Positions 5,390-20,000 of a stretch of DNA of 20,000 bases are shown in pieces. The stretch is taken from assembly GCF_004010195.1 (NCBI RefSeq), contig NC_057752.1, positions 14,222,709-14,242,708 on the forward strand, read 5' to 3'. Under the pieces are notes generated by a model. The model worked only from the letters and a program-made list of their open reading frames with translations, did not search any database and was not told where the DNA came from. The position numbers were made by a program, and so were the translations under genes. Within the stretch, counting starts at the first letter, position 1. Each line of letters opens with the position of its first letter. This DNA is from Chiloscyllium plagiosum (taxonomy: Eukaryota).

Positions 5390-5499
5390 AGGAACCTTCT
5401 GGTGATATTGTTGACTTGACGGCGAGGTACTGGAGAAAGCATCGAGAAGAACTATACCACTCTGCTGCCAAGATTCCCACAAAATTATTCACTGAAGGG

Positions 5500-5770
5500 A
5501 GGGGTATGGTGGCTCAGTGGTTAGCATTGCTAACTCACAACGTCAGCAACCCGGCTTTGATTCCAGCCTCGGGTGACTGTCTGTGTGGAGTTTGCACATT
5601 CTCCCCGTGTCTGTGTGGGTTTCCTCCCACACTCCAAAGATATGCAGATTAGGTGGTTTGGCTGTGGGAAATACAGTGTTGTGGGGATGGGGGCAGGGGG
5701 AATGGTCTTCAGAGGGTCAGTCCAGACGTGATGGACCAAATGGTCTGCTTCCATACTGTAAGGATCCTAA
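5500..5770 (+). mobile_element. HE1-like V-SINE
   Basis: tRNA head TGGTGGCTCAGTGGTTAGCA, V-domain GTCTGTGTGGAGTTTGCACATTCTCCCCGTGTCTG, CR1-like 3' end. Confidence 0.88.
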
Positions 5771-5825
5771 ATGGGCAGATAGGGGTCATCTGTTGAACAT
5801 CCCATTTCGAAAGGGGTTGGTGGGG

Positions 5826-6066: not shown

Positions 6067-8312
6067 CCATAGGCCATAAAGCATGGGAGCAGAAATTAGG
6101 CCATTCGGCCCATCAAGTCTGCTCCACCATTCAATCATGGCTGATAAGTTTTTCAACCCCATTCTCCTGCTTTCTCCCCGTAACCCTTGATCCCCTTGGT
6201 AATCAAAAACCTATCTATCTCTGTCTTAAATCTACTCAATGACCCAGCCCCACAGCCTTCTGTGGCAATGAATTCCATAGATTCCCCACTCTCTGGTTGA
6301 AGAAGTTTCTCCTTATCTCCATCTAAAAGGCCTTCCCTTTACTCTAAGGCTGTGCCCTTGGGTCCTAGTCTCTCCTACCAATGGGAACATCTCCCCACCA
6401 TCCACTCTGTCCAGGCCATTCAGTATTCTATATGTTTCAATTAGATCCCCCCTCATCCTTCTAAACTCCGAGTATAAATCCAGAGTCCTCAAACGTCCCT
6501 CATATGTTAAGCTTTTCATTCCTGGGACCATTCTTGTGAACTTCCTCTGTTCTAGGGCCAGTACATCCTGAGATATAGGGCCCAAAACTGCACACAATAC
6601 TCCAAATGTGGTCTGACCAGAGCCTTATAGAGCCTCAGAAGTGCATCCCCACTTTTGCATTTACTTTCCTGACTACTGACTCAACTTGCAGGTTTACCTT
6701 GAGAGAATCCGGGACTAGAACTCCCAAGTCTCTTTGCACTTCAGACTTCTGAATTTTCTCCCCCTTTGGAAAATAGTCCATGCCTCTATTCTTCTGACCA
6801 AAGTGCATGACCTCACACTTTCCCATGTTGTATCCCACCTGCCACTTCTTTGCCCACTCTCCTACCCTGTCCAAATCCTTCTGCAGCCTCCCCACCTCCT
6901 CAACGCTACCTGTCCCTCTACCTCTCTTTGTATCATCTGCAAACGTAGCCAGAATGCCCTCAGTTCCTTCATCGAGATTGTTAATGTATAAAGTGAGAAG
7001 TTGTGGTCCCAAGATTGAACCTTGTGGAACACCACTTGTCACCGGCTGCTATCCTGAGAAGGAACCTTTTATCCCCACTCTCTGCTTTCTGTCTGACAGC
7101 CAATCATCTATCCATACCAGCACCTTTCCTCTGACACCATGGGCCCTTATCTTACTCAGTAGCCTTCTGTGCAGCACCTTGTCCAAGGCCTTTTTGAAGT
7201 CCAGGTGGATAACATCCATTGGCTCTCCTTGGTCTAACCTGCTCGGTACTTCCTCAAAGAATTCTAGCAGATTTGTCAGGCATGACCTCCCCTTGATGAA
7301 ACCATGCTGACTTTGCCCTATTTTACCACATCCTTCCAAGTGTTCAGAAGTCTTAAGACGTATTAAGGGTGCGACTGTGGCTCAGTGGTTAGCACTGCTG
7401 CCTCACAGCACCAGGGACCCAGGTTCAATTCCAGCCGAGGGTGATTGTCTGTGTGGAGTTTGCACATTCTCTCCGTGTCTGCCTGGGTTTGCTCCGCTTT
7501 CCTCCCACAATCCACTGATGTGCAGGTTAGCTGAATTGGCCATGCTAAATTGCCCGTAGTGTTCAAGGATGTGTACGTTAGGTGCCCTAGTCAGATGTAA
7601 ATGTAGAGTGATGGGTTTGGGGCGATACTCTTTGGAGGGTTGGTGTGGACTTGTTGGGCCGAAGGGCCTGTTTCTGCACAGTAGGGAGTCTAATTCTCAT
7701 CCTTCACAATAGATTCCAGGATCTTACCCATGACTGAGGTTAGGCTAATCAATCTGTAATTTTCCATCTTTTGCCTTACTCCCTTTTTGAAACAGGATGT
7801 TACGTTAGTGATTTTCCATTCTCTGGGACCCTCCCTGATTCTAGTCATTCCTGCAGGATCACCACTAATGCCTCCGCTATCTGTTCAGTTAACTCCCTTA
7901 GAACTCTGTGGTGTAGTCCATCTGGTCCAGGTGATATATCCACCTTCAGGCCATTCAGTTTTTCTAGCACCTTTTCCTTGGCGAGGGCCACCATACTCAC
8001 CTCTGCCCCCTCACTCTCTTGAATTTTTGAGATATTACTCATGTCTTCCATCGAGAAGACTGATACAAAGTAATTATCAATTCCTCAGCCATTTCCTTGT
8101 TCCCCACTACTCTCTCTCCAGTGTCATTTTCCACAGCCCAATCTCCACTTTTGCCTCTATTTTGCCCAATATATAACTAAAGAAACTCTTCCAGTCTTCC
8201 TTTATGTTACTGGCTAGCTTACCCTCATATTTAATCTTCTCCCTCCTTATTTCTTTTTTTGTTGCTCTCTGTTGGTCTTTGTAAGCTTCCAAATCCTCTG
8301 GTTTCCCACTGC
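6067..8312 (-). mobile_element. CR1 LINE, about 1.9 kb of decayed ORF2 (RT domain) plus 3' UTR, interrupted by a SINE
   Basis: Collinear RT motifs in broken frames: ISPGPDGLHHRVLREL, QSQHGFIKGRSCLTNLLEFF, DVIHLDFKKALDKVLHRRLL, TSGVPQGSILGPQL, ATFADDTK, QRDLGVLV; multiple stops and frameshifts. Confidence 0.95.
7367..7693 (+). mobile_element. HE1-like V-SINE inserted in CR1
   Basis: GTGGCTCAGTGGTTAGCACTGCTGCCTCACAGCACCAGGGACCCAGGTTCAATTCC (A/B boxes), V-domain, 3' TTGGGCCGAAGGGCCTGTTTC. Confidence 0.92.
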
Positions 8313-9074: not shown

Positions 9075-9386
9075 ACCCACATCCCATGAAAGATGAAACA
9101 AACAGAAGGGAATGTCCAGTACATGAAATTGAAAGGTCCCTCCAATTTTTAAGAGTCATCTTTTGTCTTCTGATTGTCTACGTCCCAAACATGGACACAA
9201 AAGTACCCACGCGAGAAGGCAGACATTTTCCAAAGCTTTTGGTCTTCCACTCATCAGGATCGATGCAAGACTGGCACGTTTTAAACAATGGAGAAAGCGA
9301 GGACTGCAGATGCTGGAGATCAGAGCTGAAAATGTGTTGCTGGAAAAGCGCAGCAGGTCAGGCAGCATCCAAGGAACAGGAGAATC

Positions 9387-9414
9387 GACGTTTCGGGCAT
9401 GAGCCCTTCTTCAG
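9387..9414 (-). ncRNA. Minimal type-I hammerhead ribozyme core, intact
   Basis: CUGAAGA-A-GGGC(UCAU)GCCC-GAAA-CGUC; predicted cleavage 3' of the C at 9387. Confidence 0.75.
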
Positions 9415-9501
9415 GAATGAGGTAAAGTGGGCCAAGCAGGCTAAGATAAGGAGGGACAGTCCCTCCTCCCTACCTTTTATCTTAGCCTACTTTCCTCATT
9501 C

Positions 9502-9529
9502 CTGAAAAAGGGCTCATGCCCGAAACGTC
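9502..9529 (+). ncRNA. Minimal hammerhead core with G8-to-A mutation (probably inactive)
   Basis: CUGAAAA-A-GGGC(UCAU)GCCC-GAAA-CGUC. Confidence 0.65.
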
Positions 9530-9603
9530 GATTCTCCTGCTCCTTGGATGCTGCCTGACCTGCTGCGCTTTTCCAGCAACACATTTTCAGCTCTGATCTC
9601 CAG

Positions 9604-12302: not shown

Positions 12303-12435
12303 GGAGAAAGTGAGGACGGCAGATGCTGAAGAGTCAGAGTCAAAAAGTGTGGCGCTGGGAAATCACAGCAGGTCAGGCAGCATCCGAGGAGCAGGAGAAT
12401 CGACATTTCGGGCACAAGCCCTTCATCAGGAATGA
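12303..12435 (-). mobile_element. Short Penelope-like terminal element (family A variant) with hammerhead core at 12402-12429
   Basis: Homologous along its length to 9290-9420; core CUGAUGA-A-GGGC(UUGU)GCCC-GAAA-UGUC (CpG-type change in stem III). Confidence 0.75.
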
Positions 12436-13720: not shown

Positions 13721-14994
13721 TCATAGAGTCATAGAGATGTACATCACTGCTTCGGTCCAACCCGTCCATGCTGACCAGATATCCCAACCCAATCTAGTCC
13801 CACCTGCCAGCACCCGGCCCATATCCCTCCAAACCCTTCCTATTCATATACCCATTCAAATGCCTCTTAAATGTTGCAATTGTACCAGCCTCCACCACTT
13901 CCTCTGGCAGCTCATTCCATTCACGAACCACCCTCTGTGTGCAAAAATTGTCCCGTAGGTCTCTTTTATATCTTTCTCCTCTCACCTTAAACCTATGCCC
14001 TCTAGTCCTGGACTCCCCGACCCCAGGGAAAAGACTTTGTCTATTTATCCTATCCATGCCTCTCNNNNNNNNNNNNNNNNNNNNNNNNNNNNNNNNNNNN
14101 NNNNNNNNNNNNNNNNNNNNNNNNNNNNNNNNNNNNNNNNNNNNNNNNNNNNNNNNNNNNNNNNNNNNNNNNNNNNNNNNNNNNNNNNNNNNNNNNNNNN
14201 NNNNNNNNNNNNNNNNNNNNNNNNNNNNNNNNNNNNNNNNNNNNNNNNNNNNNNNNNNNNNNNNNNNNNNNNNNNNNNNNNNNNNNNNNNNNNNNNNNNN
14301 NNNNNNNNNNNNNNNNNNNNNNNNNNNNNNNNNNNNNNNNNNNNNNNNNNNNNNNNNNNNNNNNNNNNNNNNNNNNNNNNNNNNNNNNNNNNNNNNNNNN
14401 NNNNNNNNNNNNNNNNNNNNNNNNNNNNNNNNNNNNNNNNNNNNNNNNNNNNNNNNNNNNNNNNNNNNNNNNNNNNNNNNNNNNNNNNNNNNNNNNNNNN
14501 NNNNNNNNNNNNNNNNNNNNNNNNNNNNNNNNNNNNNNNNNNNNNNNNNNNNNNNNNNNNNNNNNNNNNNNNNNNNNNNNNNNNNNNNNNNNNNNNNNNN
14601 NNNNNNNNNNNNNNNNNNNNNNNNNNNNNNNNNNNNNNNNNNNNNNNNNNNNNNNNNNNNNNNNNNNNNNNNNNNNNNNNNNNNNNNNNNNNNNNNNNNN
14701 NNNNNNNNNNNNNNNNNNNNNNNNNNNNNNNNNNNNNNNNNNNNNNNNNNNNNNNNNNNNNNNNNNNNNNNNNNNNNNNNNNNNNNNNNNNNNNNNNNNN
14801 NNNNNNNNNNNNNNNNNNNNNNNTCCATGTTGACTATCCCTAATCAGTCCTTGCCTTTCCAAATACATGTAAATCCTGTCCCTCAGGATTCCCTCCAACA
14901 ACTTGCCCACCACCGAGGTCAGGCTCACTGGTCTATAGTTCCCTGGCTTGTCCTTACCACCCTTCTTAAACAGTGGCACCACATTAGCCAACCT
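13721..14994 (-). mobile_element. Young CR1 LINE (HER1-like), probably one element spanning the assembly gap
   Basis: 3' end with TCATAGAGTCATAGAG tail and open C-terminal frame left of the gap; RLANVVPLFKKGGKDKPGNYRPVSLTSVVGKLLEGILRDRIY..IRDSQHG right of the gap, same strand and correct order. Confidence 0.88.
14065..14823. other. Assembly gap
   Basis: Run of N. Confidence 1.
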
Positions 14995-15002
14995 GATGAA
15001 GG

Positions 15003-15420
15003 TCACCTGATGAAGGAGCGGCGCTCTGAAAGCTAGATTTTTTTTTTAGATTACTTTACAGTGTGGAAACAGGCCCTTCGGCCCAACAAGTCCACACCGA
15101 CCCGCCGAAGCGCAAACCACCCATACCCCTACATTTACCCCTTACCTCATACTACGGACAATTTAACATGGCCAATTCACCTAACCTGCACATCTTTGGA
15201 CTGTGGGAGGAAACCGGAGCACCCGGAGGAAACCCACGCAGACACAGGGAGAACGTGCAAACTCCACACAGTCAGTCGCCTGAGGCGGGAATTGAACCCG
15301 GGTCTCTGGCGCTGCGAGGCAGCAGTGCTAACCACTGTGCCACCGTGCCGCCCACTGTGCTTCCAAATAAACCTGTTGGACTATAAACTGGTGTTGTGGG
15401 ATTTTTAACTTTGCTCACCA
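15003..15420 (+). mobile_element. Family B Penelope-like terminal element split by a SINE; hammerhead core at 15007-15035
   Basis: CAC-CUGAUGA-A-GGAGC(GGC)GCUCU-GAAA-GCUA-G, resuming at 15357 as GTGCTTCCAAATAAACCTGTTGGACTATAAACTGGTGTT, collinear with the reverse complement of 13620-13708. Confidence 0.75.
15037..15353 (-). mobile_element. Young full-length HE1-like V-SINE
   Basis: Minus strand starts GGGCGGCACGGTGGCACAGTGGTTAGCAC, B-box GGTTCAATTCC, V-domain, tail TAATCTAAAAAAAAAATC; CpGs retained. Confidence 0.95.
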
Positions 15421-17014: not shown

Positions 17015-18680
17015 TGGAAACAGACCCTTCACTGACCAGATATCCCAACCTAATCTAGTCCCATTCGCCAGCACCTGGCACATATCCCTCTAAACCCTTC
17101 CTATTCATATACCCATCCAAATGCCTTTTAGATGTTGTAATTGTACCAGCCTCCACCACTTCCTCTGGTAGCTCATTCCATACACGTACCACCCTCTGTG
17201 TGAAAACGTTGCCCTTTAGGTCCCTTTTAAATCTTTCCCCTCTCACGTTAAACCTATGCCCCTCACCTTTCTTAAATAATGGCACCACGTTAGCCAACCT
17301 ATTTATCCTATCCATGCCCCTCATGACTTTATAAACCCCTATAAGGTCACCCCTCAGTCTCTGACACTCCAGGGAAAACAGCCCCAGCCTGTTCAGCCTC
17401 TCCCTACAGCTCAGACTCTCCAACCCTGGCAACATCCTTGTAAATCTTTACTGAACCCTTTCAGGTTTCACCACATCCTTCCGATAGCAGGGAGACCAAA
17501 ACTGAACACAGCATTCCAGCCTAACCAATGTCCTGTACAGCCGCAACATGACCTCCCAACTACTGTACTCAATACTCTGACCAATAAAGGAAAGCATACC
17601 AAACGCCGCCTTCACTATCCTATCTACCTGCGACTCCACTTTCAAGGAGCTATGAACCTGCACTCCAAGGTCTCTTTGTTCAGCAACACTCCCCATGACC
17701 TTACTGTAAAATGTATAAGTCCTGCCCTGATTTATCTTTCCAAAATGCAGCACCTCACATTTATCTGAATTAAACTTCATCTGCCACTTTGGCCCATCTG
17801 ATCAAGATCCTGTTGTACTCTGAGGTAACCTTCTTTGCTGTCCACTATACCACAAATTTTGATATCTTCTTCAAACTTACCGGCCATACCTCCTACGCTC
17901 CCATCCACGGCACGGTGGCACAGTGGTTAGCTCTGCTGCCTCACAGCACCAGAGACCCAGGTTCAATTCCCACCTGTCTGTGTGGAGTTTGCACATTCTC
18001 CCTGTGTCTGCGTGGATTTCCTCCCACAGTCCCAAAATGTGCAGGTTAGGGTGGATTGGCCATGCCAAATTCCCTGTAGTGTTAGGTGTAGGGGAATGGG
18101 TCTGGGAGGGTTGCTCTTCAGCGGGTCGGTGTGGACGTTTTGGGCCAAAGGGCCTGTTTCCACACTGTAAGTAATCGAATCATTTATATAAATGTCAAAA
18201 AGTAGTGGACCCAGCACCGAGCTCTGGGTAAAACCACTGGGTCACAGGTCTCTAGTCTGAAAAACAACCCTCCACCAGCACTCTGTATCTCTCTTACCTT
18301 CAAACTAATTTTGTATCCAAGTGGCTAGCTCCCCCCAGATTCCACGTGATCTAACCTTTTTAACCAGTCTACCATGTGGAACCTTGTCAAATGCCTTGCT
18401 GAAGTCTGTATAGACAATATCTACCGCTCTACCTTCATCAATCTTCTTCGTTACTTCTTCAATAAACTAGATTAAGTTTGTGAGACATGATTTCCCACGT
18501 ACAAAGCCAAGTTGATGATCCCAAATCAGTCCTCGCCTTTTCAAATGCATGTCAATCCTGTCCCTCAGGATTCCCTCCATCAACTTGCCCACCGTCAGGC
18601 TCACCGGTCTACAGTTCCCTGGCTTTTCCTTACCACCTTTCTTAAATAATGACACCACGTTAGCCAACCTCCAGTCTTCA
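17015..18680 (-). mobile_element. CR1 LINE (HER1-like), RT to 3' UTR, with deletions and a nested SINE
   Basis: ANVVSLFKKGGKEKPGNCRPVSLT..GFVRGKSCLTNLI; MKFNSDKCEVLHFGK..QRDLGVQVH; RLRGDLIGVYKVMRG..VWNELPEEVV. Confidence 0.95.
17908..18181 (+). mobile_element. HE1-like V-SINE inserted in CR1
   Basis: CGGCACGGTGGCACAGTGGTTAGC, GGTTCAATTCC, V-domain, tail CTGTAAGTAATCGAATC. Confidence 0.93.
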
Positions 18681-19114
18681 CTCGGAGAGTTTAAAATTAA
18701 TAGGAAGAAATCTTAAAAAGATTGCTGGTGCTTGAAGATAACAACGCACAGGGACCGGATGAGATGTAACCAAGGATTTTGAAGAAAGGTGAGGGTGGAG
18801 ATTGCAAGGTCACTGGCTACAATCTTTCCTGGACTTGGGAATGTGCCAGAAGACCAGAGAATTGTAAACATGACAGCCTCATCCAAGAAAGGTTGTCATA
18901 ATAAATCCCAGTAATTACAGGCCAGCGAGTCTAACTTCAGTGGGAAAACTTCTAGAAACCATTATCCTGGATAGAATTAGTAATCACACAGAGAAAGGTG
19001 AGATGATTAGGAAAAGCCAGCACAGATTTCTCAGGGGTAAGTCATGTTTAGAGCTGAAAATGTGTTGCTGGAAAAGTGCAGCAGGTCAGTCGGCATCCAA
19101 GGAGCAGGAGAATC

Positions 19115-19142
19115 GACGTTTCGGGCATGAGCCCTTCTTCAG
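19115..19142 (-). ncRNA. Minimal type-I hammerhead ribozyme core, intact
   Basis: CUGAAGA-A-GGGC(UCAU)GCCC-GAAA-CGUC. Confidence 0.75.
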
Positions 19143-19151
19143 GAACTCTTC

Positions 19152-19179
19152 CTGAAGAAGGGCTCATGCCCGAAACGTC
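19152..19179 (+). ncRNA. Minimal type-I hammerhead ribozyme core, intact
   Basis: CUGAAGA-A-GGGC(UCAU)GCCC-GAAA-CGUC. Confidence 0.75.
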
Positions 19180-19867
19180 GATTCTCCTGCTCCTTGGATG
19201 CTGCCTGACCTGCTGCGCTTTTCCAGCAACACATTTTCAGCTCTGATCTCCAGCATCTGCAGTCCTCGCTTTCTCCCTGAGCGATAGGGAACACAGTCGG
19301 TGGGAGTGGGGTTCTCCAGGGCTGTGTTTTTGAGACCATTGCTTTTCCTGATGTACCTTAACAATCTGGATCTTGCGGTAAAGGTGACAATTTCAACGCT
19401 TGCAGATGACACCAGCATGCAGAAGCGATTTACAGGCATGGTTCCAGGGATGAGGATCGATTAATGACGTTGGGATTGTTCTCCCTGGGAGAGCAGAAGG
19501 CTGAGAGGGCAATCTGATCGAGATTTTCAGAATCATGAGTGAGTTGGACAGAGTCGACAGGGAGGAGCCGATTCCACGAAGAGGGGCCTCGATTTAAAGT
19601 GACACGTGAATGGTGGAAGAGCGATGTGAGGAAAATCCTTTTCACTCAGCAAGAATACATTGCCTGAAAATGTGGAGTCAGGTTCAAGCCAGGGATTCAA
19701 AAGGGGCATTGGATGTTTATTTGGATAGGAATGGGGTAAAGACAGGAAATTGGCCCCAAAGGGATAGAATCAGAGCTGGTATGATCAGCCGGATGACCTC
19801 CTTCAGTCCCATAACAATTCTGTCATCCTGTGTAATGTCACCTATGGCAATTTGTTATCATATTTTG

Positions 19868-20000
19868 GATCAGTGGTGCTGGAAGAGCACAGCAGTTCAG
19901 GCAGCATCCGAGGAGCAGCAAAATCGACGTTTCGGGCAAAAGCCCTTCATCAGGAATAAAGGCAGAGAGCCTGAAGAGTGGAGAGATAAGCTAGAGGAGG
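19868..20000 (-). mobile_element. Penelope-like element 3' terminal region (related to family A), running off the window; intact hammerhead core at 19926-19953
   Basis: CAGGCAGCATCCGAGGAGCAG homology to 12375-12395; core CUGAUGA-A-GGGC(UUUU)GCCC-GAAA-CGUC on the minus strand. Confidence 0.75.

Follow-up and report, generated by a model that had tools for sequence, protein, structure and literature searches.

A head-to-head pair of truncated Penelope-like element (PLE) ends carrying hammerhead core motifs within a CR1-type element of Chiloscyllium plagiosum

The window, that is, the whole stretch of 20,000 nucleotides that was analysed, contains near its right end a short inverted insert embedded in a decayed CR1-type RT fragment (Table 1). 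The insert totals 227 nt and consists of two arms joined at their 5' ends, both of which stop 3 nt upstream of the sequence CUGAAGA, with the 3' ends facing outward, much as the preliminary description of this locus had proposed in placing the truncation about 3 nt upstream of this sequence. That description also announced a near-perfect palindrome with 96-nt arms and a 3-nt spacer, and this was recovered: in the window sequence, the segments 19050-19145 and 19149-19244, 96 nt each, are complementary at 93 of the 96 positions and enclose the spacer CTC, as it stands in the assembly. The extent assigned to the palindrome, 19050 to 19276, has to be narrowed, however, because the paired arms reach 19244 only and the final 32 nt form an unpaired tail, by which the right arm overshoots the left one (128 vs 96 nt). 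Computed folding turns the region 19030-19300 into a single hairpin of -214.6 kcal/mol, and none of 200 shuffled sequences was as stable (z -24.6). The insert ends with the letters TTTCTCC, without poly(A), and its first base, A 19050, is shared by the left arm and the target, a microhomology of 1 nt.

Table 1. Features of the inverted insert, its host flanks and the second inverted pair in the window
Feature	Position	Strand	Description
Left host flank	18682..19049	+	Decayed CR1-type RT fragment ending GKSCL
Left arm	19050..19145	-	PLE end of 96 nt, truncated at the 5' side and without the tail; its sense strand is the minus strand; a related-species contig matches through 19050
Left hammerhead core, C3 to C17	19115..19142	-	Descriptor match at 19142
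Central spacer CTC	19146..19148		Untemplated, or the family's upstream CTCA minus A
Right arm	19149..19276	+	128-nt 5'-truncated PLE end reaching the family 3' terminus
Right hammerhead core	19152..19179	+	Descriptor match at 19152; CUGAAGA with one extra A, GGGC/GCCC as stem II, GAAA and the palindrome ACGU; cut predicted after 19179
Tail	19245..19276	+	32 nt, unpaired, on the right arm only
Right host flank	19277..19720 (end approximate)	+	Same CR1-type element, resumes at LSDRE
Pair 2, head-to-head, same family	9290..9603		Arms both truncated 43 nt upstream of CUGA

The host on both sides is a CR1-type RT sequence, in agreement with the initial assignment of the insert to an old CR1, although Pfam gives RVT_1 only and CR1 is the clade to which we take this host to belong. 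The GKSCL of the left-flank frame ends at 19050, and the RVT_1 match of this frame is weak (E 0.0015, below the curated cut-off), whereas an intact CR1-type copy at 7291-7099 on the minus strand matches RVT_1 in its two frames with E values of 2.9e-06 and 2.3e-09. By comparison with this intact copy, 177 nt are absent between GKSCL and LSDRE, from which the right-flank frame continues through PLLFLMY to LADD. Hence, RT sequence is indeed missing, as had been noticed, but the gap ends earlier than just before PLLFLMY, namely, at LSDRE (19277). A separate, smaller deletion lies further along the right flank, and in the host copy internal deletions also follow LSDRE and LADDT. We looked for a target-site duplication but found none, the longest word common to the two flanks being 5 nt and located away from the junctions. 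The CR1-type RT fragments at 18190-18595 (minus) and 18682-19049 (plus) contain the same motifs and are arranged back to back, adjoining the insert.

There are six copies of at least 84 nt of this PLE family and its relatives in the window. The copy at 9417-9290 is identical to the right arm at 127 of 128 positions and lies within a second inverted pair (pair 2 in Table 1), which has a 1-nt spacer at 9458, nine perfect pairs and rearranged inner parts; its right core is mutated (CUGAAAA), and its right arm runs into an N gap. A member of a related subfamily (88% over 84 nt) occupies 19873-20000 with its sense on the minus strand; it is tail-less and continues upstream of CUGA for 47 nt or more, as far as the window reaches, and could represent the left arm of one more inverted pair beyond the window. 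At 12303-12432, there is one tailed copy from a related subfamily (86%), which is family-like for about 26 nt upstream of the core and in which the helix III palindrome is broken (AUGU). Apart from these PLE copies, a repeated SINE-like element with a tRNA-like head is found at 5496-5771, 7367-7694, 15224-15356 and 17912-18180, presumably resembling the shark HE1-type SINEs.

Four of 24 listed sequencing runs were compared with the region 18700-19800: three DNA runs, which come from the species of the window (organism A; run X1), from the same organism in another study (X5) and from a related species (organism B; X12), and one RNA run. The family is very abundant, with 82,154 contigs aligned to the stretch in one run. 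Its 3' end at 19276 was found in all four runs, with 740, 522, 545 and 599 loose ends and a low agreement of 0.34-0.46. At 19149, there were 167, 207, 253 and 363 loose ends, indicating that many copies extend further upstream. The tail-less end (19050/19244) did not appear among the 24 of 1479 loose-end positions listed.

We consider it very likely that the structure is a single PLE insertion of the inverted-plus-tail type. Four of five features of PLE insertions were found, namely, a hammerhead in the repeat, a head-to-head inverted copy, a one-sided tail and a fixed 3' end without poly(A). An inverted, 5'-truncated copy together with a one-sided tail is described as typical of endonuclease-bearing (EN+) PLEs in the sections of PMC8557442 and PMC3846280 covered here, and tails of 30-40 nt are described for PLEs in these two papers and in PMC11167929, again in the parts covered. 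The inserts of EN+ PLEs with an inverted pLTR plus tail, in the accounts by Arkhipova et al. 2013 (PMC3846280) and in PMC8557442 and PMC2377424 as far as these were covered, show the same head-to-head inversion and junction palindrome as the insert analysed here; the tail of the rotifer Pen2a is 31 nt vs 32 nt in the present case, and in both the hammerhead lies in the repeat (PMC3846280, in the same sections). There are, however, three differences from the published cases, in the portions considered: the present insert, 227 nt as a whole, has no ORF between the repeats; the rotifer examples had a target-site duplication of 8-10 bp or none, and here there is none but approximately 177 nt of target are lost, as checked against an empty site (see below); and both arms of the present insert stop at one base just before the hammerhead core. 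The insert is a real, young and single insertion of a known kind, and a dead stub. In the 64 of 106 stop-to-stop frames of at least 70 aa that were scanned, there was no GIY-YIG match, and the three RVT_1 matches all fell in CR1-type pieces.

Several other classes were considered for the insert. Non-LTR retrozymes, as described in the covered part of 10.64898/2026.07.22.740005, are likewise non-coding, hammerhead-bearing and PLE-derived, but they form head-to-tail tandem arrays in which a dimer ribozyme is possible in cis, whereas here the copies are head to head on opposite strands; with copies inverted rather than tandem, this class was ruled out. A MITE or another palindromic non-autonomous transposon was ruled out as well, given that the ends differ by 32 nt, there is no target-site duplication and the centres vary between loci. 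A microRNA precursor was discarded because all six Rfam matches were to miRNA models and below gathering (the best one at 51.2 vs 68 bits), as is usual for long hairpins.

Both arms carry CUGAAGA, one extra A, a 4-bp stem II, GAAA and CGUC, and in both the palindrome ACGU (positions 15.2-16.2) could provide a shared helix III of a dimer. Stem II is closed by G10.1-C11.1, with the extra base after A9, in both arms, as expected for the core of a minimal type I hammerhead (min-HHR; CUGANGA, GAAA and UH), and the hammerhead descriptor gave seven matches in the window compared to a mean of 0.0 in 50 shuffled sequences. The core, the extra base, stem II and ACGU are features that the arms share with the min-HHRs of metazoan PLEs described by Cervera and de la Pena 2014 (PMC4209133, in the parts covered). 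Helix I, in contrast, comprises two contiguous pairs in both arms, where 4-5 bp are expected for min-HHRs and 2 bp are given for D. virilis (same source and same parts); in untruncated copies of the family, helix I pairs at three of the four first positions. A search against Rfam returned no hammerhead match at E<=1. Of the two intact hammerheads that had been claimed, therefore, the core, stem II and ACGU stand, but helix I and the Rfam search speak against intactness, so that we file the arms as hammerhead core motifs rather than as intact ribozymes, any activity of which would need a dimer. Minimal PLE hammerheads are thought to act as dimers and to cleave weakly, according to the sections of PMC4209133 covered. 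The exact search with a degenerate hammerhead pattern produced no matches in viral contigs and none in metagenome contigs.

The two cores are only 9 nt apart and lie on opposite strands, which makes dimerisation in cis impossible; in Schistosoma, dual motifs on opposite strands are located about 100-700 bp from each other (PMC4209133, in the part covered). In a transcript of either strand, the antisense copy precedes the sense copy, and in computed folding the pairing probability of stem II is 0.0 in both read-through strands vs 0.99 in a lone arm. These predictions bear out the suggestion that the hammerhead would be sequestered whichever strand is transcribed, and in the folding model it is a passenger that is unable to fold in either read-through transcript. 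Trans cleavage at the upstream CUC was rejected by inspection, as the palindromic partner of helix III and the pair 1.1-2.1 would mismatch. Two more hammerhead-like motifs, with sequences unrelated to this PLE family, were observed at 14993-15036 and 9215-9257 (minus); the former has a duplicated start, CUGAUGAAGG, and the latter lies about 30 nt outside pair 2.

The outer junctions of the insert are present in X1, in contigs that match 18700-19073 (depth 4.6) and 19257-19800 (depth 4.5), with 2 of 374 and 8 of 544 letters different, respectively, and that cross the host junctions by only 24 and 20 nt, short of the 31 letters required for a crossing. A unitig is expected to end shortly after it enters a high-copy repeat. 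In X5, there was no junction-crossing piece among those listed. The exact CTC centre is absent from the listed reads and contigs, none of which spans the centre, and CTC accordingly rests on the assembly. One could imagine, then, that the centre is an artefact, a short-read assembler having collapsed or shortcut a longer repeat between real outer junctions. This explanation is in line with the lack of a listed contig across the centre, where the outer junctions are crossed by no more than the 24 and 20 nt mentioned, with the two N gaps in the window, one of them adjoining pair 2, with the presence of G at 19268 in both pairs of the window where A accounts for about 98 in 100 of depth, and with the warning in the covered text of PMC8557442 that such structures mis-assemble. 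Nevertheless, we regard it as highly unlikely: the outer junctions are found in contigs of single-copy depth with the few differences given above, the arms, attached to the two flanks of a single CR1, both face outward, such that an inversion must lie between them, there are three private differences between the arms, and near-identical centres occur in reads at other loci.

The comparison with a sister species that had been suggested at the outset was run on X12. A contig of 596 nt matches 18700-19050 (24 differences in 351 nt) and continues with 154 unlike letters, and a contig of 631 nt matches 19277-19800 with 42 differences over 524 nt, preceded by 38 letters unlike the stretch, so that the orthologous contigs stop matching at one border of the insert and restart at the other. 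The overhangs sum to 192 letters, or to 162 if they overlap by 30, and thus bracket the expected 177. The related species has an empty site with extra sequence, and the loss occurred in the present lineage. With at least 154 unlike letters past the left breakpoint in the related species, the suspicion that a deletion may accompany the insertion is supported. The flanks differ between the two organisms by 7.5% and the arms from each other by 3.1%, which makes the insert the younger feature. Together with closely similar head-to-head centres elsewhere in all three DNA runs, the empty site upholds the original view of a single integration event. Two independent insertions placed back to back by chance are conceivable for a family as abundant as this one, which aligned 82,154 contigs in one run and has six copies of at least 84 nt in 20 kb; yet, the two arms share one truncation point, the related species has neither of them and other loci show the same centre again, and we consider such a coincidence next to negligible. 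The locus provides a clean, dated example of an inverted PLE insert that can replace target DNA instead of duplicating it.

At other loci, variants of the centre were identified at 19146-19147, namely, GGAATTCC in 13, 9 and 21 contigs, GGAATCC in 12, 4 and 14 contigs, and GGAACCTTCC in 11, 1 and 13 contigs of X1, X5 and X12, respectively. The central forms amount to 1-2 in 100 of depth in X5 vs 8-13 in X1 and X12, a scarcity which implies that library effects matter. A longer inverted insert that was later shortened by a central deletion, through processing of a cruciform or hairpin, perhaps with removal of the CR1 segment, could also yield such a structure. Long palindromes are unstable, pair 2 has longer arms and an internal rearrangement near its centre, and the arms of the insert already differ at 3 of 96 positions, all of which would agree with this scenario. 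We judge it distinctly improbable, however, given that the centre is at the same position at many loci, in three runs and two species, where independent deletions should scatter, and that a central deletion accounts neither for the 32-nt offset of the tail nor for the loss of flanking CR1 sequence.

At other loci, 11 of the 15 listed joints between arms (of 597) combine an arm that stops at -3 or -2 with one that stops anywhere from +33 to +99, and in the remaining 4 of these 15, the longer arm ends at +4 to +19. The reference used for the comparison itself stops at -3, which inflates the number of joints placed at 19145. Among the 12 rows listed (of 533), five start from 19145 and show their filler letters; the filler starts with T in four of these, one of the four having TG, and never with TGA, so that those long arms truly end at -3 to -5. 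Microhomology was 0 in all runs for 12 of the 15 joints listed (of 597), a value that is necessarily 0 where filler letters are present. The joins thus lie 3-5 nt upstream of CUGA and approximately 30 nt from the hammerhead cut site.

This placement bears on the idea that hammerhead cleavage fixes the junction. The junction is indeed within 3 nt of the core, and one listed row ends at 19180, the first base past the cut. Cleavage, however, would strip all sequence upstream of 19180, and CUGAAGA and stem II with it, yet these are kept in both arms, and none of the 15 joints listed (of 597) ends within 2 nt of the cut; furthermore, in the covered text of PMC11167929, mutants of the anole ribozyme left insertion in vitro unchanged and no RNA-seq reads began at the cut. 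The early formulation of an event at the ribozyme, if understood as driven by cleavage, fails here because the cut is expected after 19179, which is 28 nt downstream from C3, whereas the join is at -3. We therefore attach very little probability to ribozyme-set ends, a possibility that is largely refuted for this locus.

For the origin of the insert as a whole, we favor a scheme to which we would give an even chance of being correct in its entirety: cDNAs primed at two ends of a target break, running off the 5' end of the RNA and joined end to end, after the split from the related species. The PLE endonuclease would have opened both target strands inside the old CR1, and each 3' end would have primed RT at one of two internal starts 32 nt apart, producing one arm with and one without the tail, by analogy with the anole enzyme; the 32-nt offset between the arms is the part of this two-start step that can be seen here. 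Both cDNAs, of only about 96-128 nt, would have left the RNA at its 5' end, 3-4 nt ahead of the hammerhead core, where the clustering of ends is partly seen, and transcription would probably start at this point of the pLTR. The 3' ends of the two cDNAs would then have been joined with a few filler bases left, and about 160-180 nt of CR1 between the priming points would have been lost, the loss in this lineage being seen and its timing at insertion being presumed.

In the parts of PMC11167929 (Frangieh et al. 2024) covered here, the Poseidon protein of Anolis carolinensis cleaves and extends both strands in vitro and initiates RT at two internal sites on either side of the tail, to which the 32-nt tail on one arm of the present insert corresponds; these starts are located about 111-118 nt past the point where stem II begins, and the family end in our case is 116 nt past it. 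Inverted products and the positions of cDNA ends are not treated in the text of that paper that was covered. The scheme also resembles the twin priming of L1 (10.1101/2024.12.14.628481, in the sections covered), in which cDNAs on both ends of a break are joined into an inverted insert with short target deletions, as in the present case. The likeness has its limits. In twin priming of L1, one cDNA starts at a poly(A) and the other copies a different part of the RNA, whereas here both copy the same 96 nt, resulting in a palindrome without poly(A).

The asymmetry between arms of 96 and 128 nt, which equals the 32-nt tail, counts in favor of priming from two starts at two ends, and the recurrence of centres at the same point counts in favor of run-off; the common end of both arms of pair 2 at family position -43 was counted likewise. 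The family sequence at -4, TCATTCC, matches the initiator consensus YYANWYY, although a match is expected once every 90 nt by chance, which lessens its weight. Other observations tell against run-off, in particular, that the reference ends at -3 and 15 of 597 joints were listed, and that many copies extend upstream of -4 (the 167-363 loose ends at 19149, and pair 2). The tail-less end being absent from the 24 of 1479 listed positions, no family-wide second start is seen in them, and the left end could be a trimming product. Given the other internal deletions in the CR1, the 177-nt loss could postdate the insertion. The window links no PLE ORF to the insert, which was also counted against the scheme.

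The main rival, close to the view taken in the preliminary description, is fold-back or self-priming, whereby one cDNA (or an antisense template) folds near the hammerhead and copies itself into the inverted arm. Self-priming has been published for rotifer Penelopes on the grounds of palindromes at inverted junctions (PMC3846280, in the part covered), it explains symmetric ends, such as those of the insert and of pair 2 (-43/-43), as well as asymmetric joints, and the cDNA strand can form a 3-bp micro-hairpin at the site (TCA-GGAA-TGA, -0.6 kcal/mol). The best-supported centres, however, include a loop-less perfect palindrome, which is impossible for simple fold-back without processing; the 7-nt-shorter junction that the micro-hairpin predicts is absent among the rows listed (15 of 597 joints, with 6 centre rows unlisted); and the lack of microhomology in 12 of these 15 joints adds to the case against it. 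Simple fold-back is therefore disfavored, and we regard self-priming as unlikely, although clearly less so than the other rivals.

Generalizing the scheme of two primed ends with run-off, we suggest, tentatively and with somewhat less than even confidence, that PLEs make short run-off cDNAs similar to "strong-stop" products, which end at the transcription start before the hammerhead and, when joined end to end, give rise to mini-palindromes. Such products would follow if RT starts internally on a pLTR-initiated RNA, with only about 100-130 nt left to its 5' end, and both nicked target strands can serve as primers. In D. virilis, the promoter is internal and a 75-bp intron lies 46 bp downstream of the start (PMC2377424), and this intron ends at helix I (PMC4209133), both in the parts of the papers covered; by this analogy, a transcription start near the hammerhead would have a precedent, although not at this spacing. 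A 3' splice site at the junction, in the style of D. virilis, was considered and rejected, there being no AG at -4. The strong-stop-like model was not found in the PLE literature searched, supplements and paywalled papers aside, and the formation of PLE inverted repeats is called an open question in the covered text of PMC8557442. What is new here is the empty-site evidence for the loss of target sequence and the placement of the join away from the ribozyme cut; the architecture has already been published. If the model holds, PLE inverted repeats would originate at two primed ends instead of through self-priming on an antisense template, the promoter of each family and its two RT start sites could be read off the palindrome centres in the genome, and the question of how PLE inversions form would be settled. 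With many such stubs in one genome, priming at two ends and self-priming could be separated by counts of junction types.

In one raw RNA run, about 2 in 100 of the reads of which were examined, depth was 0 on the unique flanks of the insert. Altogether, 2609 reads fell on the stretch, 97 in 100 of them continuing unlike it, and 23 of 30 bins had no depth. Places with A>G and T>C numbered 19 and 13 in the RNA run vs 20 and 17 in a DNA run, and thus were no commoner. These RNA reads derive from other copies of the family and tell nothing about whether this locus is expressed or edited. A pile of RNA starts was not found in this polyA single-cell library, a type unsuited to such starts.

In X5, there is zero depth in the bin to the right of the palindrome (19292-19328), and palindromic centres are roughly five- to tenfold rarer than in X1 and X12; the interval 19029-19049 on the other side was noted along with this bin. 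The X5 pattern is what a loss of hairpin-forming fragments from some libraries would produce, and the hole in depth proves nothing. Finally, both position 19268 and its counterpart in the copy at 9290-9417 are G, and A is found there in about 98 in 100 of the aligned depth; the shared G in both tailed arms may reflect either a rare young subfamily that is present twice within 10 kb or the reuse of a path by the assembler.
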